From the NCBI GenBank assembly GCA_020852275.1, contig JADZBE010000026.1, forward strand, positions 116,316 to 180,315: a stretch of 64,000 bases of DNA. The letters are read 5' to 3'. The translations under genes and the position numbers were made by a program. The notes beneath the pieces are model-generated. The model searched no databases, was not told the DNA's origin, and saw nothing but the letters and a program-made list of their open reading frames with translations. This DNA comes from Phycisphaerales bacterium. Lineage in GTDB: Bacteria > Planctomycetota > Phycisphaerae > UBA1845. Positions 3,033 through 60,273 of the stretch are shown piece after piece. The stretch's first letter is position 1; every line of letters starts with the position of its first letter.

Positions 3033-3170
3033 GCACAGGTTGGAAACCTGTGCTACAGCCACCGGTTGGAAACCGGTGCCACAGGCACAGGTTGGAAACC
3101 TGTGCTACAGCCACCGGTTGGAAACCGGTGCCACACACCTTGGTGTCGTCACCGGGTGGAGACCGGGGCC
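3033..3170. repeat. Tandem twin-hairpin repeat (two 52-bp units plus a degenerate third hairpin)
   Basis: The unit GCACAGGTTGGAAACCTGTGCTACAGCCACCGGTTGGAAACCGGTGCCACAG occurs twice in tandem. Each unit holds two perfect hairpins (CACAGGTT..AACCTGTG and CACCGGTT..AACCGGTG). It lies between the convergent pfp and tolC-like genes. Confidence 0.85.
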
Positions 3171-3206
3171 ACAACGCGTTCTGCAACCGACCCGGCCGCC
3201 GGACGA

Positions 3207-4946
3207 TCAATTCTCCTTCAGCGGCGCGATGATCACGTTGTTGTATTGGAGCAATGTTCCCTTTGCCGCCTCAAGGTCGATCACCGCGATGTGGTAGTCG
3301 ATCAGCGCTTGAAGAAGCTGGCGCCGCCCGGCGGCCAGACCGTTGAGCGCCCCAAGCTCCGCGTTGAGCTGGGCGAAGTCCTTGCGCTCCGCGCGGGCGT
3401 CGATGGCCTGCACCTGCCGCACGCCCGCCTCGACGGACTCCAGCCGCGGCAGGAGCACGCTCCAGTTGGTGTCGAGATTGCGGACGCCGACGCTGACCTG
3501 CGTGATGACCTCCTCGGTCCGCCGCCGCAGCTCCGCCTCGGCCTGCGCCAGCGTGAGCCGGGCGCGGATCAGCCGCGACTTGGCGGCGCGGTTCCCGATG
3601 GGCACCTCGAACTCGATGCCCACGGTGTACTCGTTGAAGTCGTTCTTGGTCACCTCGTCGAAGGAGCGGTCGGCGCTCTTGCCCAACCCGTCCACGGCGT
3701 AGTTGAAGGTGAGGTCGAGCCGGGGCAGAGTCTGATTGCGCGCCTGCCCGATGCTCGAGAGCGCATTGGAAACCAGCAGTTCCGCCTCGCGGATTTCCGA
3801 GCGGTTTTCCAGCGCGGTCTGAAGCTCGCCGACGCGGTCCACGAGGATGCGCGGAAACACCGGCAACCCTTCCGGGAGGATTTCCAGATCATCCGCCAGG
3901 CTCAGCTCCGGGTCGTTCAGCAGCGAGAGCAGTTGGTCCTCCGCATTGCGCACGTTGGACAGCACGCGAAGAAAATCCGCGCGGCTGGTCTCCAGGTTTG
4001 CCTTCGTGTCTTCAAGCTGGATCTTGTTGACGTCGAAATCTTTCCGCGCGTAGAGGTTCTGGTAAATGCTCTCGAATCGTTCCAGCAGCCGGGCGGAGAT
4101 GACCACCTCCCGCCGCGCCTGCACCAACTGCCAGAATGCCACCTCCGCCTGACGCAGCGACTCCCGGATGCGCTGCTGGAACTGGTAATCCGCGATCCGC
4201 TTGTTGTTCACGGCGACGACGATGGCCGACCGGTTGAAGTCGATGCCGAACCCGCGCAGCAGCGGCTGCTGTAGCCCGAGGTTGAGCTGGCTGAAGTACT
4301 GCGGGTTGATCTGCTGGAACGCCAGGCTGGTGAACTGCCGCTCGAGGCTGTAGCTCGTGCTCACCTGCATGCCGGTGGGGAGGACTTTGCGAACGCCCGT
4401 GTTCCAGTAGAAGCGGTCGAAGTCCGTGGCCGCAAGCTGCGAACCCGACGGGCGGTCCTGAATCACCTTGCTCATGCTGGAGAAGAGTGAAGCGTCGAAC
4501 ACCGCCTCGGCCTCGACGACGCGCGTGGCCTCGATCGCCGGGTTGTACCGCGCGACCTCCAGCGCGAAGTTGTACTTGAGCATCCGCTCGATGGCGTCTT
4601 CGAGGGTGAGCGAAACCTGCCGCGGACGCCTGACCTGCCCGACTCGCTCGAGGAGGCGTGCGTAGTGTTTCTGATCTTCCTTGTCGCCGTCGCGCAGCTC
4701 CGCCTCCGTAAGCTGGGGAACGACCTGTGGATCGATGAGGTGGTTCCGCAGGCGCTCCGGGTCGATGCCTTCGGGGAGCCCTCCGCGCTCCGCGGTCTGC
4801 GCCGGGTCGCCGGTGGCCTGCTCCCCGGCTGGCTGCTGGTCGGTTGCCCGCACGGTGACCTTCGTCTCGACGCCCGGCTCGGTCTGTGCCGCGGCGACCA
4901 CCGGCAGCAGCGCCATCCACCCCCACGCCCATGTCGTGTGCGTCAT
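3207..4946 (-). CDS. TolC-family outer membrane efflux protein
   Basis: The 817-aa ORF is trimmed to the internal ATG at 4946. This gives the signal peptide MTHTTWAWGWMALLPVVAAAQ. The body is long, helix-rich and internally duplicated, with the LTLEDAIERMLKYNFALEVARYN-type start typical of outer membrane factor proteins. Confidence 0.75.
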   Translation of the reverse strand: MTHTTWAWGWMALLPVVAAAQTEPGVETKVTVRATDQQPAGEQATGDPAQTAERGGLPEGIDPERLRNHLIDPQVVPQLTEAELRDGDKEDQKHYARLLERVGQVRRPRQVSLTLEDAIERMLKYNFALEVARYNPAIEATRVVEAEAVFDASLFSSMSKVIQDRPSGSQLAATDFDRFYWNTGVRKVLPTGMQVSTSYSLERQFTSLAFQQINPQYFSQLNLGLQQPLLRGFGIDFNRSAIVVAVNNKRIADYQFQQRIRESLRQAEVAFWQLVQARREVVISARLLERFESIYQNLYARKDFDVNKIQLEDTKANLETSRADFLRVLSNVRNAEDQLLSLLNDPELSLADDLEILPEGLPVFPRILVDRVGELQTALENRSEIREAELLVSNALSSIGQARNQTLPRLDLTFNYAVDGLGKSADRSFDEVTKNDFNEYTVGIEFEVPIGNRAAKSRLIRARLTLAQAEAELRRRTEEVITQVSVGVRNLDTNWSVLLPRLESVEAGVRQVQAIDARAERKDFAQLNAELGALNGLAAGRRQLLQALIDYHIAVIDLEAAKGTLLQYNNVIIAPLKEN

Positions 4947-6829: not shown

Positions 6830-6872
6830 CGTTATTCAGAACCCGTGGCGCCGGCGAGGGCGGGGAGCAATT

Positions 6873-6907
6873 GCGAATGGCGAATGGCGAATGGCGAATG
6901 GCGAAAT
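6873..6907. repeat. Heptanucleotide tandem repeat (GCGAATG x4 plus GCGAAAT)
   Basis: The sequence reads directly as gcgaatg gcgaatg gcgaatg gcgaatg gcgaaat. It lies in the 228-bp spacer between pntAA and pntAB. Confidence 0.9.
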
Positions 6908-7057
6908 CAGAAACCGTAGCGCCAGCGAGCGTGTGAGTCCGGCAGCCCTGTGGGATCTGTGTACGCCTTTGCGCTAGAAGGATCGACGAGGCTCGCACGC
7001 GTGACGACGGTCACCCCTCCATTTTTTGAGGGGTCGGAAGGACTGAGGAATCAAGCG

Positions 7058-7660
7058 ATGTTGGATCGACGAAGACTACGATGGATCGCGCCGCTGCTGC
7101 TCGTCGGGCTTTGGCCGGCGGGGTGCGGCAACGACACGACCTCGACGCCGGAGTCTGACAAGGGCAGCCCCCCTGCCGCCGCCAAGGGCGGTGGGGAGGA
7201 TGCTTCCAAGCCCCAGCAGCCGGGCGATACGGAGCACAAGCCGGGTGACGCGGAGCACAAGCCGGGTGACGCGGAGCACAAAGTGGGAGACGCGACCCAG
7301 TCCGCGCCGGCGGCCGGGTCCACGCAGGCCCCGCCCCCCGCCGGTCACGGCGCCTCCGGCGACGCCGGGCTGGACTTCATGTCCATGCTCTTCGTCTTCA
7401 TGCTGGCGACCTTCATCGGCATCGGCGTGATCCGCCGCGTTTCGCGCCTGCTGCACACGCCGCTGATGTCGCTGACCAACGCCATCTCCGCCATCGCCGT
7501 GGTCGGCTCGATCATGGTCACCGGCAGCACGCACTACCCCGGCTGGATTCGCTTCATGGGCGGCGTCGCCCTCTTCGCTTCCATGACCAACATCGTCAGC
7601 GGCTTCCTCATCACCGACCGGATGCTCAAGATGTTCAAGACGAGGGAGGCGGGCAAATGA
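7058..7660 (+). CDS. pntAB: NAD(P) transhydrogenase subunit alpha part 2 with N-terminal signal/lipoprotein-like extension
   Basis: The C-terminal ~95 aa (MSMLFVFMLATFIGIGVIRRVSRLLHTPLMSLTNAISAIAVVGS...ITDRMLKMFK) is a canonical 3-helix PntAB. The upstream in-frame 107 aa start at an ATG preceded by GAGGAA. They encode MLDRRRLRWIAPLLLVGLWPAGC plus a P/G/A/K-rich region with KPGD(A/T)EH x3. An alternative short start at ATG 7379 cannot be excluded. Confidence 0.75.
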   Translation: MLDRRRLRWIAPLLLVGLWPAGCGNDTTSTPESDKGSPPAAAKGGGEDASKPQQPGDTEHKPGDAEHKPGDAEHKVGDATQSAPAAGSTQAPPPAGHGASGDAGLDFMSMLFVFMLATFIGIGVIRRVSRLLHTPLMSLTNAISAIAVVGSIMVTGSTHYPGWIRFMGGVALFASMTNIVSGFLITDRMLKMFKTREAGK

Positions 7661-9140: not shown

Positions 9141-9245
9141 CGTCACCCCCGCGCAGGCGGGGGTCCAGGGCGCATCGCCAAGCCGCTGGATTCCCGCCTG
9201 CGCGGGAATGACGAAATGGATTCCCGCCTGCGCGGCAATGACGAG
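9141..9245. repeat. Composite ~100-bp hairpin element (MITE/REP-like)
   Basis: CGTCACCCCCGCGCAGGCGGGGGTCCAG, then a spacer, then CTGGATTCCCGCCTGCGCGGGAATGAC, then a second TTCCCGCCTGCGCGGCAATGAC. The first 28 nt are identical to the copy at 59421. Related copies lie at 21959, 32428 and 33633. Confidence 0.85.
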
Positions 9246-9379
9246 TTTCACCTCGCTCGGCGTGTTGAGCGACTTGGCGCGGTGATCGTCCGATCATCCG
9301 GCCCTTGCCCGCGGCTGCGCGTCCGTCTGAATCGTACCCTTTAGCGCTAGGCACTCCGCCCAAGCCGCGAGGGACACGC

Positions 9380-10672
9380 ATGAATGATCGCCAGGGGCCG
9401 CTTAGTCTGGCCGCGACGTTGGGGCGTCGCGGAGCGCTCGCCATCACCCTGCTGTGGGGCGTCGGCGTCGTCGCCTATGCGCTCTTCTCCGCCGTGAATC
9501 ATCGACGCGACGACGCGCGCAGCGCCGCGGACATCGTTCATGCCGCCCTCAGCTCGACCGAGTCCCTCGACGCCGATGCCTGCCGGCAGCAGCTTCAGCG
9601 GCTTGTAACCTCCCACGAACGGCTGCTCGCCGCCGCGTGGGTCACGGACACCGGCGAGGTCGCCTGCGCCTGGCCCGCGGACGCCGCCGCTGAAGCGTCC
9701 GCAGCCGCCGGTCAGGGCACGGGCAGTTGCGTGGTCACTTTCCAGCGTGGCGGATCGAACGTCCGCGCTTGGCGCGTCGCATCGCCCCACGTCGGTCGAG
9801 CGGGCGTTTGCGTCGCCTACGTGCGCGCTGCGAGCTGGGCATCCGCCTGCCTCGGGGCCGTGCTGGCGTTCGCGGGCATCACTCTCGCGGCATCGCTCGT
9901 GATCTGCGCGACTCACGCGCGGCGCGTCCGTGTTTTGTTGCAGCCCGTATTCCGCGACCTCTCACAAGTCGCGCGCACGGATCGACAGGAAGAGCCTGCC
10001 CACGCGCCCGCGTGCGACGCTTTCGAGGAAACTTGCGCGCTTCGGCGGGACATGCTGCTCCGCGGGGAGGAACTCGCCGAATCGCGCAAGCAAGTCGAGC
10101 AGCTCGAAAAGCAGATGCGCCACGCGATCCACCACCGCGAAAAGACCTTCGCGCGCAGCCTGGAAAAGACCCGCCGCGAGACGCTGACCGACCCGCTCAC
10201 CGGGCTGTACAACCGGCGATTCCTCGACGAGGACCTGCCGCGAATCCTCGGCGAAATCGAGGCGCGCGGCGGCGACGTGACCATGGTCATGATCGACCTC
10301 GACCACTTCAAGCAGCACAACGACTGCAACGGGCACGAGGCCGGCGACGAGCTGCTCAAGTTCGTTGGCGAGCTTTTGCGCGGCGCCACGCGCGACTCCG
10401 ACTTCTGCATCCGCTACGGCGGCGACGAATTCGCCCTCGTCATGCCGGATACTCCGCAGGACCAGGCCGTCCGCGTCATCGACCGCATCGTCAAGCTCTT
10501 CGCGCAGTACGCCACCGTATTCAAGACCCAGCCGCGCGTCAGCATGAGCGCGGGCGTCGCGTCCTCCGGCTCCCGCACGATCGAGGAGCGCCGCCAGCTC
10601 ATCAAGCTGGCCGACCGCGCGCTCTACCAGGCCAAGCACCTCGGCAAGAACCGCGTCACCGTCGCGGCGTAG
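9380..10672 (+). CDS. Diguanylate cyclase (GGDEF) with N-terminal membrane/sensor region
   Basis: The ORF is trimmed to ATG 9380, which follows a GAGGGA SD. The GGDEF domain reads LTDPLTGLYNRRFLDE...IDLDHFKQHNDCNGHEAGDELL...RYGGDEFALVM. An RDSD I-site motif lies five residues upstream of GGDEF. Two predicted TM helices flank an N-terminal domain. Confidence 0.85.
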   Translation: MNDRQGPLSLAATLGRRGALAITLLWGVGVVAYALFSAVNHRRDDARSAADIVHAALSSTESLDADACRQQLQRLVTSHERLLAAAWVTDTGEVACAWPADAAAEASAAAGQGTGSCVVTFQRGGSNVRAWRVASPHVGRAGVCVAYVRAASWASACLGAVLAFAGITLAASLVICATHARRVRVLLQPVFRDLSQVARTDRQEEPAHAPACDAFEETCALRRDMLLRGEELAESRKQVEQLEKQMRHAIHHREKTFARSLEKTRRETLTDPLTGLYNRRFLDEDLPRILGEIEARGGDVTMVMIDLDHFKQHNDCNGHEAGDELLKFVGELLRGATRDSDFCIRYGGDEFALVMPDTPQDQAVRVIDRIVKLFAQYATVFKTQPRVSMSAGVASSGSRTIEERRQLIKLADRALYQAKHLGKNRVTVAA

Positions 10673-10733
10673 CGCATCCGTTCCTGGGTTTCGGCCATCC
10701 GCCGCATCATCGTCTTGACAGGCCGTTGCAGAA

Positions 10734-10760
10734 GGGGTGGCACGGACCTCCGGGACGTGC
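10734..10760. repeat. REP-like element, second subfamily (GGGGTGGCACGGACCTCCGGGACGTGC)
   Basis: It matches the inverted copy at 15892..15919 and shares the GGTGGCACGG head with the main family. Confidence 0.75.
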
Positions 10761-10836
10761 TTTCCCGCGGCAAACTCCTGTTCCAAAGCATGCGATTCGG
10801 AGTCTTGCAGCGGGCTGTTAAGCCTTCCCGCAGCCC

Positions 10837-11682
10837 TCAACCCACGAAGTCGATTTGCGCCGTGTGTGGAATCAGTCCGGCCTCGTGTGCGCGGCGCAGC
10901 AACTCGCGGACAGCATGGCGGCCCGCGTCGCCGTAGTCGATCGTCCAGTCGTTGACGTACATGCCGACGAAGCGATCGGCGAGGTCGCGGCCCATATCCC
11001 GCGCGTATTTCATCGCGTGCCGCACGGCTTCGTCACGATGCGCGAGGCTGTATTGGATGCTGCTTTTGAGAATCGCGGCGATTTCGTTCAAGGTGGATTC
11101 GCCGCCGAGGTCTCTGCGGATCGCGTTGCCGCCCAGCGGCAAGGGCAGGCCTGTCTCCTGCTTCCACCAGGCGCCGAGGTCCACGATCTTGTGCAGGCGG
11201 TGGTTGCGATACGTGAGCTGCCCTTCGTGGATGATCAGCCCCGCGTCCGCTTCGCCGCGTTCGACCGCCTGCAGGATGCGATCGAACATCATCACCTTGT
11301 GGCGGAACCGCCCCTTCCCCAGCAGCAGGTTCAGCGTCAGGAAGGCCGTCGTCATCTCACCGGGCACGGCGATCAGCCGCCCGGCCAAGTCCGCCGGATC
11401 CATCGGGTCGCGGGCGACGACGAGCGGCCCGTATCCGTCGCCCATGCTCGATCCGCAGTGGGTCAGCGCGTAGCGCTGGGCGACGTAAGGATAGGCGTGA
11501 ATGCTGACGGCCGTGATGTGCAGCTCGCCGCGCAGCGCCCGCTCGTTGAGCGTCTGAATGTCCTGCAGCACGTGCTCAAACGTCCAGCCCTTCGTGTCCA
11601 CCAGGCCGGCGGCGAGGCCGTAGAACATGAAGGCATCATCCGGATCGGGGCTGTGACCAAGAGTGAGAAGTTTCGAGTTCAT
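10837..11682 (-). CDS. MqnA/MqnD/SBP-family menaquinone (futalosine pathway) biosynthesis protein, MqnD-like
   Basis: The N-terminus LTLGHSPDPDDAFMFYGLAAG...FEHVLQDIQTLNERALRGELHITAVSIHAY resembles the MqnD pattern (G-SPCPND-F-F...DI..LN...ELD). The length of 281 aa fits. The exact enzyme assignment (MqnA versus MqnD) is uncertain. Confidence 0.6.
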   Translation of the reverse strand: MNSKLLTLGHSPDPDDAFMFYGLAAGLVDTKGWTFEHVLQDIQTLNERALRGELHITAVSIHAYPYVAQRYALTHCGSSMGDGYGPLVVARDPMDPADLAGRLIAVPGEMTTAFLTLNLLLGKGRFRHKVMMFDRILQAVERGEADAGLIIHEGQLTYRNHRLHKIVDLGAWWKQETGLPLPLGGNAIRRDLGGESTLNEIAAILKSSIQYSLAHRDEAVRHAMKYARDMGRDLADRFVGMYVNDWTIDYGDAGRHAVRELLRRAHEAGLIPHTAQIDFVG

Positions 11683-11706
11683 GACGGCAGCATATCGGCG
11701 GGTGGA

Positions 11707-11746
11707 GGCGGAATCACGCGGTCGGGGGCGGAATCACGCGGGAGGC
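11707..11746. repeat. 20-bp direct repeat x2 (GGCGGAATCACGCGG core)
   Basis: ggcggaatcacgcgg occurs at 11707..11721 and again at 11727..11741. It lies in the divergent intergenic region between the mqnD-like gene and the S8 peptidase gene. Confidence 0.8.
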
Positions 11747-11758
11747 AGCGGGGCGGTC

Positions 11759-11835
11759 GATTTCAGATTTCAGATTTCAGATTTCGGATTTCGGATTTCA
11801 AATTTCAGATCTGAAATTCCAGATTGCGGATTTCA
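11759..11835. repeat. Heptanucleotide tandem repeat, 11 units (GATTTCA/GATTTCG consensus)
   Basis: The units read gatttca x3, gatttcg x2, gatttca, aatttca, gatctga, aattcca, gattgcg, gatttca. The array contains the palindrome AATTTCAGATCTGAAATT. Confidence 0.9.
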
Positions 11836-11901
11836 GAACTGGGGCAGTCTGATGGACAACGTCGCTCCGTACAAGGTCCCGCCGGACGGCGACGCTGCTC
11901 A

Positions 11902-11994
11902 CGCGGGCGGCGACCCGGCTCGCGCGGGCGACGCTGTTCGCGCGGGCGACCCTGCCTGCGCGGACGACCCTGCCTGCGCGGGCGACCTTGCTCC
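11902..11994. repeat. 18-bp tandem repeat, about 5 units (CGCGGGCGACCCTGCCTG consensus)
   Basis: The units are at 11902 (21-nt variant), 11923, 11941, 11959 and 11977. The array lies upstream of the signal-peptide start of the S8 gene. Confidence 0.85.
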
Positions 11995-12223
11995 TCGGAA
12001 GCGCCTGTTGCTGCCGGCGATGTCCAGACTCCTGATTCTGGGACCGGGACCGTGCCTCGCAGCGAACAGAAAGAGTTTCCGTTCCCTGCAGGATTCTGCT
12101 AGAATGGAGGTTCCTCGGCGGCACGCTCGAGTCGTTTCGTTCACCCCCCGGATCGATTTCGGCGGGGCGGCGCCGCGCGGGCGGAGTTTTCATTCCTTTT
12201 TCATGTTTGGGGGGATGGCGGTT

Positions 12224-14575
12224 ATGAAGACGAAGGCTTGGATGGGAATCGGCTCATGGACCCCGATGCTGAGGTGGATGTGCTGCGCGGGCCTGGCCGT
12301 GGGTTTGGCCGTTTCGGCACGCGCGGAAGGCGTGGATCCGGTGCCCGGCGCGCCGGTGTTCGAGGAAATCCCGGGCAGCCGCGAATTCTCGGGCAGCATG
12401 ATCGCCCGCCCCGTGCAGCGCGAGGCCGCCATTCAGGACGGCCACTCGCGCAAGGAGGCCAAGCGCCTCGATCAGACGGCGCGCAACGCGATGACCGCTT
12501 ACGTCGTCACCCGCTACGTGCCCCAGACGGATGAGTACGTCTTCGACGTTCCGGCCGGCTCGTCCGAGAGCGCCGTCGCGGCGGCGCTGATGGCCACCGG
12601 CGCGTTCCAGTATGTCGAACCGGACTGGATTTTGTATCCCATCGCCTGCCCGAACGACCCCGGCCTCGGCAGCCAGTGGCACCACAACGCCAACCGCATG
12701 AACTCCTGCGCAGGCTGGGACGTGCACACGGGCAACCCGACGGTGAGCGTCGGCATCTGCGACACCGGCGTCCTCACCACGCATGAGGACCTTCAGCTTC
12801 ACCGGCTCGAAGGCTACAACGCCGTCGATCAACTGTGGGAATCGCAAGGCGGGCAGATCGGTCCGGTACACTCCCACGGCACCCAGACCACCGGCTGCGC
12901 CGCCGCCAACGGCAACAACGCCAAGGGTGTCAGCGGTGTGGGCTGGGACCTGTCGCACCGGATGCTCCGCGTCAGCAACTCCAGCGGCGGAAGCTCCAGC
13001 CAGTCGATTCTCCAGCACGCGGCGCGCACGGCCGTCGAGAACGGCGACCGCGTCGCCAGCGTCTCCTACAGCGGCGTGGACAGCTCCTCGAACCTGACGA
13101 CGGCGACCTACATCAAGTCCATCGGCGGTCTGCTCGTCTGGGCGGCGGGCAATGACAACCGCAACCTCACCTTCTCCAGCCGCGACAGCGACGACATCAT
13201 CGTGGCCGGCGCCACCGACTCCAACGATGCCAAGGCCAGCTTCTCGGCCTACGGTCCCATGGTGGACCTCGTCGCGCCGGGCGTGAGCGTGTACACGACG
13301 ACCTCCAGCGCCAACAACGCCTACGCGGCCGTCAGCGGCACGAGTTTCGCCTGCCCGCTCACCGCCGGCGAGGTCGCGCTGATCTGGTCCAAGAACCCGG
13401 CGCTGACGCCGGACCAGGTCGAAGACGTGCTCAAGGCCTCGTGCGACGACCTCGGCACGGGCGGCATCGACAACACCTTCGGCTACGGGCGCATCAACAC
13501 GCTCAAGTCGATGAACAACGCCGGCGGCGGCATCACCGACTGCAACGGCAACGGCATCGACGACGCCACCGACATCGCCAACGGAACCAGCCAGGACTGC
13601 AACGGCAATGCCCGACCGGACGAGTGCGACCTCGCCGACGGGACCAGCAGCGACTGCAACGGCAACGGCACGCCCGACGAGTGTGACATCTCCGGCGGCA
13701 GCAGTGCGGACTGCAACAACAACAACGTGCCCGACGAATGCGACATCTCCGGCGGAACCAGCCAGGACGCCAACGGCAACGGCATCCCCGACGAGTGCGA
13801 GAACCCGTCGCTGGCCGGCACGTGGATGGCCTTCGAGTCCGACACGGTGATCCCGGTCGTCGGCACGGCCGCCAACGAAGACGTCGTCTCCTACAACGCC
13901 GGCACCGGACAGTGGAAGCTCGTCTTTGACGGCAGCGATGTCGGCCTCTCCGGCTTCGCGATCGACGGGTTGGCCGTTCTGCCCGGCGGCGACCTGCTGT
14001 TGTCCTTCACCGCTTCCGGCACCGTGCCGGGCGTGGGGACCGCCGACGACAGCGACATCGTGCGCTTCACGCCCACCTCGCTGGGCGCCAACACCTCCGG
14101 CACGTTCTCGATGTACTTCGACGGCAGCGACGTGGGGCTGAGTACCAGCGACGAGGACGTGGACGCCATCAGCCTCGACGCATCCGGTCGCCTGATCATC
14201 TCCACCGTCGGCGCAGCTTCGATGAACGGGTCGAGCGGGCAGGACGAGGACCTGTTCACCTTCAACGCAACCAGCTACGGGTCGAACACGGCCGGCACGT
14301 TCTCGATGCTCTTCGACGGCAGCGACGTGGGCCTGGGCAGCAACAGCAACGAAGACGTGGACGCGGTGTGCTGGACCTCGGCGGGGAAGATCCTGCTGTC
14401 CACCATCGGCGACTTCTCCGTGACCGGACTTTCGGGCGCGGACGAGGACGTCTTCCAGTTCACGCCGACCTCGCTCGGCTCGAACACCGCCGGGTCGTAC
14501 ACCATGACCCACGACCTCAGCGCGCTGGGCATCAACACGGCCGCCGACGTCAAGGCGGCGGAGGTGGTGAACTAG
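12224..14575 (+). CDS. Secreted S8 subtilisin-like serine peptidase with TSP3-like Ca-binding repeats and a C-terminal triple ~63-aa repeat
   Basis: The 970-aa ORF is trimmed to ATG 12224. This gives the signal peptide MKTKAWMGIGSWTPMLRWMCCAGLAVGLAVSARA. The catalytic triad motifs are ICDTGV (Asp), HGTQTTG (His) and SGTSFACP (Ser). Five DCNGNG-PDECD repeats follow. After them come three repeats of the form FDGSDVGL...DEDV...TS-G-NT-GTFSM. Confidence 0.85.
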   Translation: MKTKAWMGIGSWTPMLRWMCCAGLAVGLAVSARAEGVDPVPGAPVFEEIPGSREFSGSMIARPVQREAAIQDGHSRKEAKRLDQTARNAMTAYVVTRYVPQTDEYVFDVPAGSSESAVAAALMATGAFQYVEPDWILYPIACPNDPGLGSQWHHNANRMNSCAGWDVHTGNPTVSVGICDTGVLTTHEDLQLHRLEGYNAVDQLWESQGGQIGPVHSHGTQTTGCAAANGNNAKGVSGVGWDLSHRMLRVSNSSGGSSSQSILQHAARTAVENGDRVASVSYSGVDSSSNLTTATYIKSIGGLLVWAAGNDNRNLTFSSRDSDDIIVAGATDSNDAKASFSAYGPMVDLVAPGVSVYTTTSSANNAYAAVSGTSFACPLTAGEVALIWSKNPALTPDQVEDVLKASCDDLGTGGIDNTFGYGRINTLKSMNNAGGGITDCNGNGIDDATDIANGTSQDCNGNARPDECDLADGTSSDCNGNGTPDECDISGGSSADCNNNNVPDECDISGGTSQDANGNGIPDECENPSLAGTWMAFESDTVIPVVGTAANEDVVSYNAGTGQWKLVFDGSDVGLSGFAIDGLAVLPGGDLLLSFTASGTVPGVGTADDSDIVRFTPTSLGANTSGTFSMYFDGSDVGLSTSDEDVDAISLDASGRLIISTVGAASMNGSSGQDEDLFTFNATSYGSNTAGTFSMLFDGSDVGLGSNSNEDVDAVCWTSAGKILLSTIGDFSVTGLSGADEDVFQFTPTSLGSNTAGSYTMTHDLSALGINTAADVKAAEVVN

Positions 14576-18127: not shown

Positions 18128-18220
18128 GCTCGACCCATGGCCCGAGGTCGAGTGGACTCGATGCCCGAAGCCGAGTCAGCTCGATCTCCGAAGCGAAGTC
18201 GGCTCGATTTCCGGAGCAGC
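18128..18220. repeat. 23-bp tandem repeat, about 3.5 units
   Basis: The units are cccgaggtcgagtggactcgatg (18141), cccgaagccgagtcagctcgatc (18164) and tccgaagcgaagtcggctcgatt (18187), with partial flanking units. Each unit has an internal short palindrome such as TCGAGTGGACTCGA. Confidence 0.75.
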
Positions 18221-18566: not shown

Positions 18567-18666
18567 CGATCGACGCCTTCACCCATCGATCGGCGCCTTC
18601 ACGAATCGGTCGACGCCTTCACCCATCGATCGGCGCCTTCACGCATCGATCGGCGCCTCCGCCGAT
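18567..18666. repeat. 20-bp tandem repeat, 5 units (CGATCGGCGCCTTCACNCAT consensus)
   Basis: The units start at 18567, 18587, 18607, 18627 and 18647. The array is 213 bp upstream of the GNAT gene start. Confidence 0.9.
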
Positions 18667-19478: not shown

Positions 19479-19587
19479 AGGTCCTTCCCGGTTGGGGCAC
19501 GGGCCTCCGCGGTGCGCCTTCAGCCCGAGCGTGCACGCCGGCTGAAGCCCGTCCCCGCGGAACATTACTTGAACCTCCCGCGGAGCT

Positions 19588-19938
19588 TCACTGGAAACGC
19601 CCGCGGAATTCCTCCGCCGGATACTTCTTCGCATTCTTCTTCATTTTGTCCGCCAGCGCCGCGGAGAGGTCGATGTCCAGCGCGTTGGCGAAGGACAGCA
19701 GGAAGGCCAGGACATCGGCCGCTTCCTCGCGGATCTCGGCGCACTTGGCGGCGTCACGCCGCACGGCGTCGAGCTGATCGGAGCGCAGCCACTGGAAGTG
19801 CTCCATCAGCTCCGCGGCCTCGATGAGAATGGAGGCCGCCAGGTTCTTGGGATCGTGAAACTGCTGCCAGTCGCGCTCGGCCACGAACTCCGCAACGTGC
19901 TTGCGCAGGTCCATGACGGTCGTCACCTGATCGTTCAT
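19588..19938 (-). CDS. MazG-like nucleotide pyrophosphohydrolase (DCTPP1-like, single domain)
   Basis: 116 aa. The sequence FVAERDWQQFHDPKNLAASILIEAAELMEHFQW...EEAADVLAFLL...KMKKNAKKYP matches the all-alpha MazG-type NTP-PPase pattern, including its EEXXE/D motifs. Confidence 0.75.
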   Translation of the reverse strand: MNDQVTTVMDLRKHVAEFVAERDWQQFHDPKNLAASILIEAAELMEHFQWLRSDQLDAVRRDAAKCAEIREEAADVLAFLLSFANALDIDLSAALADKMKKNAKKYPAEEFRGRFQ

Positions 19939-43754: not shown

Positions 43755-43863
43755 CCAACTTGCGAGCCCGTGCCCCAACTTGCGAGCCCGTGTCCCAACT
43801 TGCGAGCCTGTGCCCCACCTGGAAATTCGGTGCCCCAACTGAGCAGCCGGCGCCCCAACCGGG
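43755..43863. repeat. 20-bp tandem array, 5.5 units with conserved frame CCAACT-N10-YGYC
   Basis: The units are:
- ccaacttgcgagcccgtgcc (43755)
- ccaacttgcgagcccgtgtc (43775)
- ccaacttgcgagcctgtgcc (43795)
- ccacctggaaattcggtgcc (43815)
- ccaactgagcagccggcgcc (43835)
- ccaaccggg (partial). Confidence 0.9.
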
Positions 43864-46425: not shown

Positions 46426-46843
46426 GTCGAATCCCTCCTGATGACCAGTGCGTTCCCCCTGAGACTGGATTATACGAACCGTCGCCGATGACTCCAACGC
46501 CGGCGGCCGGGCCAGGGCCCTTCAATTCTCGGCAGGGTGGCATGCTCTCGCTGTACTCAGCGTGAGCCTGTTGCCAGATGCGCACGCATGTGACCCAGGG
46601 AAGCTGCCATTCTGAGCTTGTCTGCACGGCCCTGCCCTACTCGGTCGCTGCGTGGACGTCGCTTGCTTGCCCGGTCGAAAATGAGGGACGAGTGGATCGC
46701 CGTAGCAGGGAAACGGGATGATTGAAAGGCCCTGGCGGAGACCCCCGCGCGCTTTTGGGAATCGGGTTCAGCCGCTACAATGTCCCCGCCTTCTGGGCCG
46801 GGGCTTCGTAGGAATCGCACTGCCGGGGATAGGAGCACAAGCG

Positions 46844-49595: not shown

Positions 49596-49663
49596 GCATG
49601 AAGCCTGGGCGTAAGGCCTAGGCCCAGGGCCGCGGCATTCCAGCCGCATCGCATGCTGCACCG

Positions 49664-49718
49664 TGTGGCACCGGTTTCCAACCGGTGATCTGTGGCACAG
49701 GTTTCCAACCTGTGCAGC
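49664..49718. repeat. Twin-hairpin repeat, inverted copy of the 3033 family
   Basis: TGTGGCACCGGTTTCCAACCGGTGATCTGTGGCACAGGTTTCCAACCTGTGCAGC is the reverse orientation of the 52-bp unit at 3033..3136. Confidence 0.85.
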
Positions 49719-53755: not shown

Positions 53756-53835
53756 AGGTGGGGCAGCTCTCCGAGCTGCCATAGGTGGGGCAGCTCTCCG
53801 AGCTGCCAAGGGTCCAGCAGTTCTCTGAGCTGCTG
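53756..53835. promoter_or_regulatory. Three tandem 27-bp units each containing an 8-bp-arm palindrome (candidate operator array)
   Basis: AGGTGGGGCAGCTCTCCGAGCTGCCAT occurs twice (53756, 53783), then a degenerate third unit (CAGCAGTTCTCTGAGCTGCTG). GGCAGCTC-TCC-GAGCTGCC is a perfect inverted repeat. The array lies between the divergent Dam-like and S8 genes. Confidence 0.6.
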
Positions 53836-56559: not shown

Positions 56560-56586
56560 ATCAAGGAGCTGGCATTCTGCAAGAGT

Positions 56587-56662
56587 GCTCACATTCTGCG
56601 ATCCTGCTCGCGTTCTGCGATCCTACTCACAATCTGCGCCTTGGTCACAAATTGCGTTCCCA
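56587..56662. repeat. 19-bp tandem repeat, 4 units
   Basis: The units are gctcacattctgcgatcct, gctcgcgttctgcgatcct, actcacaatctgcgccttg and gtcacaaattgcgttccca. The array ends 83 bp upstream of the next gene start. Confidence 0.8.
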
Positions 56663-59545: not shown

Positions 59546-59995
59546 CTAGAGGTCGTCGTCGTCGTCGAGGTCCTCGTCATCATCATCATCGTCGACGTCG
59601 TCATCGAGGTCGTCGAACTCATCGTCCGCGTCGTCCTCGTCATCGTCGTCGAAGTCATCGTCCTCATCCTCGTCGAAGACGAACTCATCCTCGTCGTCCG
59701 CGCCGTCGTCGCAGACCGGCGTCTGCTCGCTGAGCCGCCCGGCGACGTGCTCCGCCGCCTGCATCTCAAACTCCGACGGGACGAGCAACTCGACGCCCGA
59801 CGGGATCGCCAGCGCCACGTGCGCGGGCTGGCGCGTCTCACACACGATCCGCGCGGGGATGCCGCACTCGGCCAGGATGCGCGTGCAGGCTTCGGCCTCC
59901 GCGCGGCTGGCAGCGAACGCCAGCGAGACCCAAGCGTCGCCTGTGCCCGCGGCATGGGGGCGATCCATGACGGCAGTGTCGTGATTGGCTGACAT
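59546..59995 (-). CDS. DUF2007-like small domain protein with extreme poly-acidic C-terminal tail
   Basis: The ORF is trimmed to ATG 59995. The N-terminal ~85 aa (VSLAFAASRAEAEACTRILAECGIPARIVCE...VELLVPSEFEMQAAEHV) fit the DUF2007 pattern. The final ~60 aa are almost entirely Asp/Glu. Confidence 0.6.
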   Translation of the reverse strand: MSANHDTAVMDRPHAAGTGDAWVSLAFAASRAEAEACTRILAECGIPARIVCETRQPAHVALAIPSGVELLVPSEFEMQAAEHVAGRLSEQTPVCDDGADDEDEFVFDEDEDDDFDDDDEDDADDEFDDLDDDVDDDDDDEDLDDDDDL

Positions 59996-60273
59996 GATGA
60001 CTCTCACCTCCGATCCAACCGGCCCCTGCGGTCGATCGCCTGATCGCTTTCCGCAGACCGGGGAGCTCCGCTTGAACCGCTTGCGCCCAAACGGCGTATC
60101 CCCGGAACGGGCAGCAGTGTATGGCCCGTCCCCCCCCGGTCAAGCAACCCGCAACGACGATTTTTCAACCCGCAGGCCCCCTCGGAACGCCCTTGAAAAC
60201 CGTCCCCGGACGGGTGATGATGCCGTCCGTCGGCACGATGCACCAGCACGGTTGCCGCCAGGGAGAAACAATC

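Follow-up and report, generated by a model that had tools for sequence, protein, structure and literature searches.

Tandem repeats built from seven-nucleotide units have reportedly been known in bacteria since about 1990, from the short tandemly repeated repetitive sequences (STRR) of cyanobacteria. Here we describe such a tract in a window of 64,000 nucleotides, taken from a metagenome-assembled genome (MAG) of an uncultured environmental member of the Phycisphaerales (GenBank assembly GCA_020852275.1, contig JADZBE010000026.1, positions 116,316 to 180,315; coordinates below are those of the window unless another locus is named). The tract consists of 11 heptamers and lies, together with two other repeat arrays, in the 541-bp spacer (11683-12223) between mqnD and a divergently oriented gene for an S8 family serine peptidase. 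It extends the known class of heptameric repeats to the Phycisphaerae, and on balance, with moderate confidence, we interpret it as near-neutral, slippage-driven repeat DNA in a rearranged and repeat-prone spacer, outside both core promoters, rather than as a tuned phase-variation switch.

Heptamers are over-represented among simple repeats in many bacteria, a finding credited to a survey of 2007 (PMC4692102). In Xanthomonas, approximately 186 arrays of GGGAATC, mostly of four units and some of them in inverted pairs, occupy the same intergenic sites in two species while varying in length and sequence, and their neighbours belong to all functional classes; Rehm et al. (2015) judged a role in phase variation unlikely and quoted polymerase slippage to account for the heptamer excess (PMC4692102). 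The cyanobacterial STRR are intergenic 7-bp tandem repeats that are able to form hairpins, and roles in transcript stability or translational coupling have been suggested for them (PMC2670836). TAACTGA direct repeats, found in Beggiatoaceae, Cyanobacteria and Bacteroidetes, lie mostly just 5' of start codons and sometimes within open reading frames (ORFs), and their horizontal spread is suspected (MacGregor 2015, PMC4679880). The classic regulatory case is that of the adhesin genes hmw1A and hmw2A of Haemophilus influenzae, where perfect (ATCTTTC)n repeats of at least 11 copies lie between promoter and start codon and are transcribed into the 5' untranslated region (UTR; PMC12721329, PMC8262952); the number of units changes over few passages, and the transcript level falls as units rise (PMC12721329).

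The window tract displays the features of this class, namely tandem 7-nt units in non-coding DNA near genes, an excess of period 7 in related loci, and a constant site at which the sequence varies. Like the Xanthomonas GGGAATC and the Nostoc GGGGAYT arrays, it is made of tandem 7-bp units in a high-G+C genome with a strong bias to non-coding DNA, and as in Xanthomonas it is kept at the same intergenic site in relatives while length and sequence change. Genes of every functional class are found as neighbours in both cases. Arrays of its unit, GATTTCR, in metagenomes peak at 32-33 nt, much as about four units are commonest in Xanthomonas, and both sets include inverted pairs capable of forming hairpins. 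However, GATTTCR lacks a G-tract and cannot form the G-quadruplex by which the Xanthomonas authors explain the four-unit preference; thus, if a preference for about four units holds for GATTTCR as well, the quadruplex explanation is not general. The window tract also differs from the Xanthomonas arrays in being long (11 units), degenerate, and placed between divergent genes, a position that is under-represented there (PMC4692102).

With the STRR the tract shares its intergenic position and tandem 7-bp repeats, but those occur in filamentous cyanobacteria with other units, whereas the window carries a single-orientation array in a divergent spacer of a planctomycete. The likeness to the TAACTGA repeats lies in the recurrence of one heptamer unit (GATTTCR) across distant taxa and in the placement of a (GAAATCC)x5 array in another planctomycete MAG (L063:5944-5977), which has the unit and orientation seen in the window and ends 5 nt before the mqnD start. 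TAACTGA repeats carry stop codons in all forward frames and lie a few nucleotides from start codons, whereas GATTTCG is free of stop codons in all six frames and the window tract is at least 77 nt away from a start. As in the hmw genes, a 7-nt unit in 11 copies lies upstream of a gene for an exported protein; unlike the hmw repeats, the window tract is imperfect, falls outside the predicted transcripts, and showed no polymorphism in the 4 + 2 samples of its sister species. Repetitive extragenic palindromic sequences and bacterial interspersed mosaic elements (REP/BIME), as well as the Rickettsia palindromic elements, are dispersed hairpins, the Rickettsia ones standing in frame within genes. 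The genus studied here also has dispersed tandem hairpins, and some metagenome heptamers are in frame as the Rickettsia elements are; unlike REP/BIME, the three spacer arrays have no other copy in the window.

The initial annotation of the window, made without database searches, had placed three arrays between the two divergent genes and a second heptamer tract elsewhere. Tandem Repeats Finder (TRF) and an independent repeat search that reproduced its registers both find these arrays about where they had been located, and simulations place them well outside what chance would produce. The heptamer tract (11759-11837) is reported by TRF as GATTTCA x11.3 with 79% matches and a score of 95, and in order its 11 units read GATTTCA (three times), GATTTCG (twice), GATTTCA, AATTTCA, GATCTGA, AATTCCA, GATTGCG and GATTTCA. 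There are thus 11 heptamers, as had been claimed, but not a uniform series of GATTTCA/G, the longest perfect run being 27 nt (approximately 3.9 units). At 43% G+C, in a genome of 66% G+C, the tract is the most A+T-rich stretch of the spacer. Within it, one inverted-looking unit gives rise to a palindrome, AATTTCAGATCTGAAATT (11801-11818), which is indeed perfect over 18 bp and has no second copy in the window or in the 218 loci that were fetched for comparison.

On the mqnD side of the tract, a 20-bp direct repeat of two copies (GCGG..GGCGGAATCAC, 11698-11737) contains the -35-like box of mqnD described below; TRF gives this unit as x2.2 at 11708-11751, with 83% matches and a score of 60. On the S8 side lies an array of 5-6 units of 18 bp on the plus strand (GGCGACCCTGCCTGCGCG, 11888-11991; TRF x5.6, 80% matches, score 104). 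None of 500 first-order Markov simulations of the 541-bp spacer yielded an array with a TRF score of at least 60, and the heptamer dimer pattern was observed 9 times against 1.85 expected, a count reached in 0 of 100 shuffles. The units of the three spacer arrays have no further copy within the 64-kb window, where GATTTCR arrays likewise occur a single time.

Pfam confirms both flanking genes. On the left, mqnD (10837-11682, minus strand; PF02621, VitK2_biosynth/MqnD, E=6.7e-79; NCBI MCC7292650.1), a housekeeping menaquinone gene, encodes a protein of the 1,4-dihydroxy-6-naphthoate synthase family. On the right, the S8 gene (12224-14575, plus strand; PF00082, Peptidase_S8) encodes a protein of 783 amino acids with an N-terminal signal peptide, 100% identical to NCBI MCC7292651.1. 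The spacer itself contains small ORFs (131 amino acids on the minus strand, 92 on the plus strand, and an in-frame extension of the S8 gene to 11663), which we rejected as coding since their translations are arginine-rich junk; such spurious frames stay open because the repeats lack stop codons. The signal peptide at the annotated S8 start and a 2-nt indel in the alignment with the sister-species locus L216 argue that the extension is non-coding, and bear out the description of the region as a divergent, non-coding spacer.

Turnover of the arrays was followed in two sister species, one represented by four Logan assemblies (L081-L084) and the other by MAG GCA_964526695.1 (L216 and L217 for the S8 gene, L218 for mqnD). 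The window and the two species are about equidistant, with MqnD identities of approximately 91% in protein and 87-90% in DNA. A heptamer zone occupies the same position in the window, L218 and L081, and the three align in register while their units differ: the repeat unit of the zone measures 7 bp in the window, 14 bp in L218 and 27/28 bp in L081. In L218 it reads GATTTCG GATGTCG (GAAGGCG AATGTCG)x2 and onward, and in L081 it is longer by 42 nt, equivalent to six extra units. The first units, [G/T]ATTTCG GATGTCG, are common to the relatives, which indicates that the ancestral array had already diverged, and the near identity of the first six units in the window points to a recent re-expansion of one unit in that lineage. 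The three species provide a snapshot of tract turnover, in which the register holds while individual units are exchanged and repeats of a higher order, of 14 and 28 bp, arise.

The two other arrays are specific to the window lineage. In the three-species alignment the 20-bp unit is present in one copy in both sister species and is duplicated in the window only, and neither the lepA-mqnD spacers of the sister species nor the regions 5' of the S8 orthologues in L216 and L086 contain the 18-bp array. Within lineages we saw no polymorphism, the four L081-type contigs being identical over 680 nt and L216 being equal to L217, although these samples may each represent single strains. Thus the comparison of unit number among relatives, which had been put forward as a check in the initial annotation, revealed a six-unit difference between species and none within the sampled lineages.

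Gene order in the sister species bears on how the spacer arose. In both of them lepA precedes mqnD and, as in the window, a GGDEF gene lies downstream. The S8 gene of GCA_964526695.1 comes after pnt-like genes, and the genes next to it on the other side, for a sigma factor and rpsA, are those found there in the window. The GGDEF-mqnD block of the window, located between pntB and the S8 gene (9305-12223), is thus a break of synteny relative to the sister species. These gene orders (lepA-mqnD and pnt-S8) suggest that the spacer is a rearrangement junction, whose left part would come from a lepA-mqnD spacer and whose right part would come from the region upstream of the S8 gene. The 18-bp array sits in the junction segment. 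More distant relatives of MqnD in species-representative genomes, from Phycisphaerae and other Planctomycetota, reach at most 76% identity, and the 80 loci from GTDB genomes with MqnD relatives (planctomycete, verrucomicrobial and acidobacterial) have no synteny with the window; these served only as a background sample. Distant S8 orthologues (P0123-P0125) were set aside for comparison as their upstream regions are unrelated. We note that in L216 a NTP_transf_2/HEPN gene pair is inserted after the S8 gene.

Conservation also served to locate the probable promoters. Adjoining the mqnD start, approximately 60 nt are kept in the three-species alignment (conservation to about 11740), and BLAST homology with L218 stops at 11721; we take the block 11683-11721 (minus strand) as the putative core promoter of mqnD. 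Read by eye, it contains a -10-like box, TATGCT (11694 to 11689; TAAACT in L081), and a -35-like box, GTGATT (11717 to 11712), 17 nt apart, and a simple sigma-70 scan returned no site at its threshold. The -10-like box ends 6 nt before the ATG, which suggests that the mqnD mRNA may be leaderless or have a very short leader. On the other side, BLAST homology of 88% with L216 begins at 12070, and the block 12070-12223 (plus strand) probably comprises the S8 promoter and a 5' UTR of about 112 nt, with a candidate -35 box TTTCCG (12076-12081), an 18-nt spacer and a -10 box TAGAAT (12100-12105). The window, L216 and L086 (the last being a locus with a 75%-identical S8 orthologue) all have a -35-like hexamer separated by 18-19 nt from a TAGAAT/TAGGCT box, as well as a conserved T-rich end of the 5' UTR before the S8 ATG. 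The 2-nt indel mentioned above again indicates that the stretch upstream of the S8 gene is non-coding.

By these assignments, all three arrays would lie between the two conserved blocks and outside the core promoters. The heptamers are 77-155 bp upstream of the mqnD start and approximately 275-350 bp upstream of the predicted S8 start site, and the 18-bp array is approximately 120-225 bp upstream of the latter. The proposal that the arrays stand in promoter spacers, where a change in copy number would alter promoter geometry, does not agree with this arrangement, since the tract falls outside the blocks that carry -35- and -10-like boxes. A sigma-54 promoter, which we suspected since TGGCAC is the most enriched intergenic hexamer, was rejected, there being no -24/-12 match above chance. 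In the S8 orthologues of L086-L091, a poly-A tract stands just 5' of the -35-like box, about 130 nt upstream of the start; it is A10 in five samples and A12 in L088, which has point changes as well.

At the level of RNA, the heptamer tract folds no better than shuffled sequence, and its palindrome forms only weak structure (z = -1.3 and -1.8). For the 18-bp array, good folding is confined to the plus strand (z = -3.1 versus +1.4 on the minus strand), where the junctions between units can form 8-bp hairpins containing G.U pairs. Rfam 15 gave no match at the gathering threshold in the spacer, the single chance-level hit being to ftsZ-DE (E=0.23; 20.7 versus 72.2 bits), and searches of the sister-species spacers gave no match.

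The mqnD-S8 spacer is not special in this genome, given that repeats of every unit type fill most of its spacers. Twelve of the 16 window arrays with a score of at least 60 and a period of at least 7 fall within the 21% of the window that is non-coding (P=6e-6), and each intergenic array has its own unit. The density of arrays is 2.5 per 10 kb in the window versus a median of 0 in the 80 related loci. The sister species are likewise rich in repeats, with different units at orthologous spacers; upstream of rpsA, for instance, L216 has a 21-bp unit x7 (11844-11989) where the window has a 23-bp unit x3. Several of the window arrays consist of hairpins in tandem, and the genus carries two hairpin units as dispersed copies. 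In the 80 related loci, period 7 is the commonest repeat class, with 13 arrays, to which 8 arrays of period 14 can be added. This finding, together with the 186 GGGAATC arrays of Xanthomonas (PMC4692102), contradicts the view that heptamer tracts are unusual in a high-G+C, free-living genome.

The unit of the window tract is cosmopolitan. A scan of metagenomes for four GATTTCR units matched at least 120 contigs, 80 loci of which (L096-L175) were analysed, and these range from 19 to 69% G+C. They contain approximately 115 perfect runs of period 7, as against 0-4 for each of the periods 5, 6 and 8-11. The perfect heptamer runs show a sharp maximum at 32-33 nt and favour one phase, although the search pattern biases both length and phase, as all phases are detected only from 33 nt, so that part of the rise reflects ascertainment. 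This does not apply to the sharp fall beyond 33 nt, and a peak at 31-33 nt is also seen for arrays with other units in these loci. Among the matches listed there are 35 inverted pairs, with about 4.6 units in each arm, around 13-205 nt, which form long hairpins; some of these pairs adjoin tRNA genes, one follows a signal recognition particle (SRP) RNA gene, and some recur as dispersed copies whose centres are conserved while their flanks are unrelated. Examples are found at L099:3089-3197, L100:9196-9316, L109:37-141 and 932-1024, and L128:33-103. In assigning neighbours we used only adjacency to tRNA or SRP RNA genes and Pfam-verified genes, since gene orientation by crude ORFs is unreliable where stop-free arrays extend open frames.

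Many of the metagenome arrays are translated. They stand in frame within Pfam-verified genes for leucyl-tRNA synthetase (LeuRS), RecG, an ATP-dependent DNA ligase, a PSD1 protein and a TPR membrane protein (L126:914-945, 1128-1160 and 2384-2415; L135:819-852 and 1144-1176; L119:12280-12311; L161:3723-3755; and the L100 array above), and give rise to peptides of the KSEIRNP or ISDFGFR type. In the TPR membrane protein a loop corresponds to an entire translated hairpin pair. In a LeuRS from Patescibacteria one array adds 13 residues that most homologues lack, and two other arrays replace sequence with little change in length, some homologues having similar peptides there. The lack of stop codons in all six frames may help GATTTCG to persist. 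A literature search for the repeat sequence and for the peptides KSEIRNP and ISDFGFR found nothing relevant, and all-against-all BLAST of the metagenome loci revealed dispersed copies of pairs and no orthologous pairs showing copy-number alleles. One heptamer unit is thus widespread, favours a certain length and has copies in frame within conserved genes. The GGATTTC arrays are a more interesting lead than the window locus.

It is conceivable, though unlikely, that GGATTTC/GAAATCC arrays represent a discrete cassette, about 32-33 nt long and often found as inverted pairs, that is written into bacterial and candidate-phyla genomes of 19-69% G+C, and that the window tract is an old copy expanded in place; the sites of such a cassette may be intergenic DNA, positions beside tRNA and SRP RNA genes, and in-frame positions in essential genes such as LeuRS, RecG and DNA ligase. 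As an account of where the window tract comes from, descent from a cassette that was inserted or copied, possibly after horizontal spread, and later expanded in place, is rather improbable. The presence of the unit on at least 120 contigs of such diverse composition, the peak at 32-33 nt with its preferred phase, the inverted pairs whose centres are conserved between unrelated flanks, and the in-frame copies in LeuRS, RecG, DNA ligase and other genes all count in its favour. Yet the bias of the search pattern, with complete detection from 33 nt only, tempers the argument from length and phase, and a preference for about four units is also seen in Xanthomonas and may be general to heptamers (PMC4692102). 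Empty and filled orthologous sites at high identity were not found in the loci compared, nor was a linked enzyme identified; few viral contigs carry the unit (8 matches), and simple insertion does not predict the two LeuRS arrays that keep the length of the protein and have homologues with similar peptides. The initial annotation had seen in the tract a slipped-strand contingency element. On such a reading, slippage would change the number of heptamers and hence the expression of the S8 gene or of mqnD in a phase or rheostat manner, with hmw as the model. The premise of this proposal stands insofar as unit content and number differ between species, by six units in one of them; in addition, the tract has 11 units with a perfect run of 27 nt, the window units have recently been homogenised, the neighbouring gene encodes a secreted protease, and hmw repeats themselves act from the 5' UTR, outside the -35/-10 spacer (PMC12721329). 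A switch is nevertheless poorly compatible with a degenerate tract (79% matched) that lies outside the conserved blocks taken as promoters, more than 270 bp from the predicted S8 start and 77-155 bp from mqnD, that showed no polymorphism in the 4 + 2 sister-lineage samples, and that sits in a genome with repeats of all unit types in most spacers. In essential genes elsewhere this unit forms in-frame arrays, which also argues against very high rates of slippage. We thus regard a contingency role as improbable; where divergent planctomycete genes are separated by a spacer full of repeats, population data are needed before it is interpreted as a contingency switch of the kind known from pathogens.

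Two further explanations give the arrays a function other than by slippage. The heptamers and the palindrome, the latter as a high-affinity dimer site, could bind a regulator or nucleoid-associated protein acting on one or both of the divergent promoters, with the 18-bp units as a second upstream set. The 7-nt periodicity with GGA/GAA unit starts at the same place in three species, the perfect 18-bp palindrome, the A+T-richness of the tract in a 66% G+C genome, and a position upstream of both promoters that suits activator or silencer sites are consistent with protein binding; but sites spaced 7 bp apart do not fall on the same side of the helix, the unit sequence differs between sister species, neither palindrome nor units have another copy in the 64 kb or the 218 fetched loci, and the only linked regulator gene is that of a sigma-70-type factor downstream of the S8 gene. 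Taken together, a binding array appears doubtful. Still less probable, and in our estimation very unlikely, is an RNA-level element, in which the tract would be part of a long mqnD leader or of a divergent non-coding RNA and act as an unstructured, GGA- or A/U-rich platform for ribosomal protein S1, cold-shock or CsrA-like proteins, as was proposed for the TAACTGA repeats of Beggiatoaceae (PMC4679880). Apart from this published precedent, the L063 array of the same unit and orientation, ending 5 nt before an mqnD start, would fit such a role, as would the GGAUGU/GGAAG motifs that sister units carry on one strand and the folding of the 18-bp array on the plus strand only. However, the window tract is 77-155 nt from the mqnD ATG and upstream of the conserved block with the -10- and -35-like boxes, the sigma-70 scan detected no promoter-like site for a divergent RNA, there is no Rfam match, and the heptamer tract folds no better than shuffled sequence.

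We therefore return to slippage-driven, near-neutral repeat DNA as our preferred interpretation. The spacer would be a mosaic produced by genome rearrangement and filled by slippage-type tandem repeats outside both core promoters. The heptamer tract would be an old member of the over-represented heptameric class, with a unit of the GGATTTC/GAAATCC family, whose first unit (GATTTCG/A) was probably re-expanded in the window lineage, replacing older, diverged units by replication slippage. The palindrome is most simply explained as a by-product of point changes or template switching, and the 20-bp duplication and the 18-bp array as recent local tandem duplications, typical of the intergenic DNA of the genus. 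Any effect on the DNA that precedes the two promoters would likely be limited to its length, A+T content and local structure, and a dedicated regulatory role seems unlikely. In this account, the arrays themselves, their turnover and lineage specificity, their placement away from the conserved blocks and the abundance of repeats in the window and related lineages are directly observed, whereas promoter positions, slippage and the absence of a regulatory role are inferred.

Several observations weigh against this interpretation. In three species the zone has retained its heptamer periodicity and roughly its length despite sequence change, which could reflect constraint. The near-identical first six units imply that the tract is young, and it may be actively unstable; the samples in which polymorphism was sought are few and may be single strains. 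A perfect palindrome of 18 bp requires several specific changes, and the secreted protease encoded on the right belongs to a class in which phase variation can occur. Finally, as start sites were predicted from sequence, the arrays could lie inside a transcript or overlap an unrecognised promoter.

Other arrays in the window illustrate the same repeat habit. Nearly every sizeable spacer has an array of its own, with units of 19-30 bp in 2-5 copies, several of which have internal palindromes (9187-9244, 18140-18217, 18567-18658, 19554-19608, 43755-43859, 53756-53833 and 56586-56638). Between convergent genes at 3033-3136 (and 3150-3172) there are 4-5 tandem hairpins of 26 nt, CACAGGTTGGAAACCTGTG and CACCGGTTGGAAACCGGTG, variants that differ by compensatory changes; the unit recurs at 49661-49716 and at L218:217-287, and is a putative REP-like dispersed element. 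A second dispersed palindrome, CATGCTC.CGCTGAGTACAGCG.GAGCATG, occurs at 46532-46572 and at L218:2236-2422 and 4587-4624, and forms a 48-bp x3.9 array in the sister species.

Heptamers of other sequence were also encountered near mqnD and S8 genes. CACTCAG-type heptamers lie inside the mqnD reading frame in Tepidisphaerales MAGs (L023:6380-6410 and L033:6406-6438), and CCTCAGT x5 lies 50-90 nt upstream of mqnD at L022:5738-5775. Clusters of GAATCC(C), the reverse complement of the Xanthomonas-type GGGATTC/GGGAATC unit family, with 6-7 copies in 400 bp, are found upstream of a distant S8 orthologue (L094:2580-3000), and the same motif provides repeat units in a Phycisphaerae MAG (L010:5801-5886 and 6917-6996). 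A GAATCC-type motif was considered as a shared element and dropped, its intergenic enrichment in the window being weak (18 versus 11 expected).

The second heptamer tract, AATGGCG x5.3 (6869-6905, 96% matches by TRF), exists as described in the initial annotation, but it sits 40 nt 3' of the pntAA stop in an operon-type spacer, before an ORF that starts at about 7058, and not in a promoter spacer. This ORF (7058-7660) has a PntAB 4TM domain and an N-terminal extension with a lipoprotein-like signal, and a 21-bp x3 repeat at 7218-7281 lies within it and is therefore coding and not intergenic. The S8 gene contains a coding repeat of its own, 57 bp x4.1 at 13570-13800, which encodes modules rich in Cys, Asp and Asn and is kept in all orthologues examined, in 3.6-5.6 copies. 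Lastly, a run of approximately 41 GTC trinucleotides with 66% matches (59552-59675) lies inside a minus-strand ORF (59546-60139).

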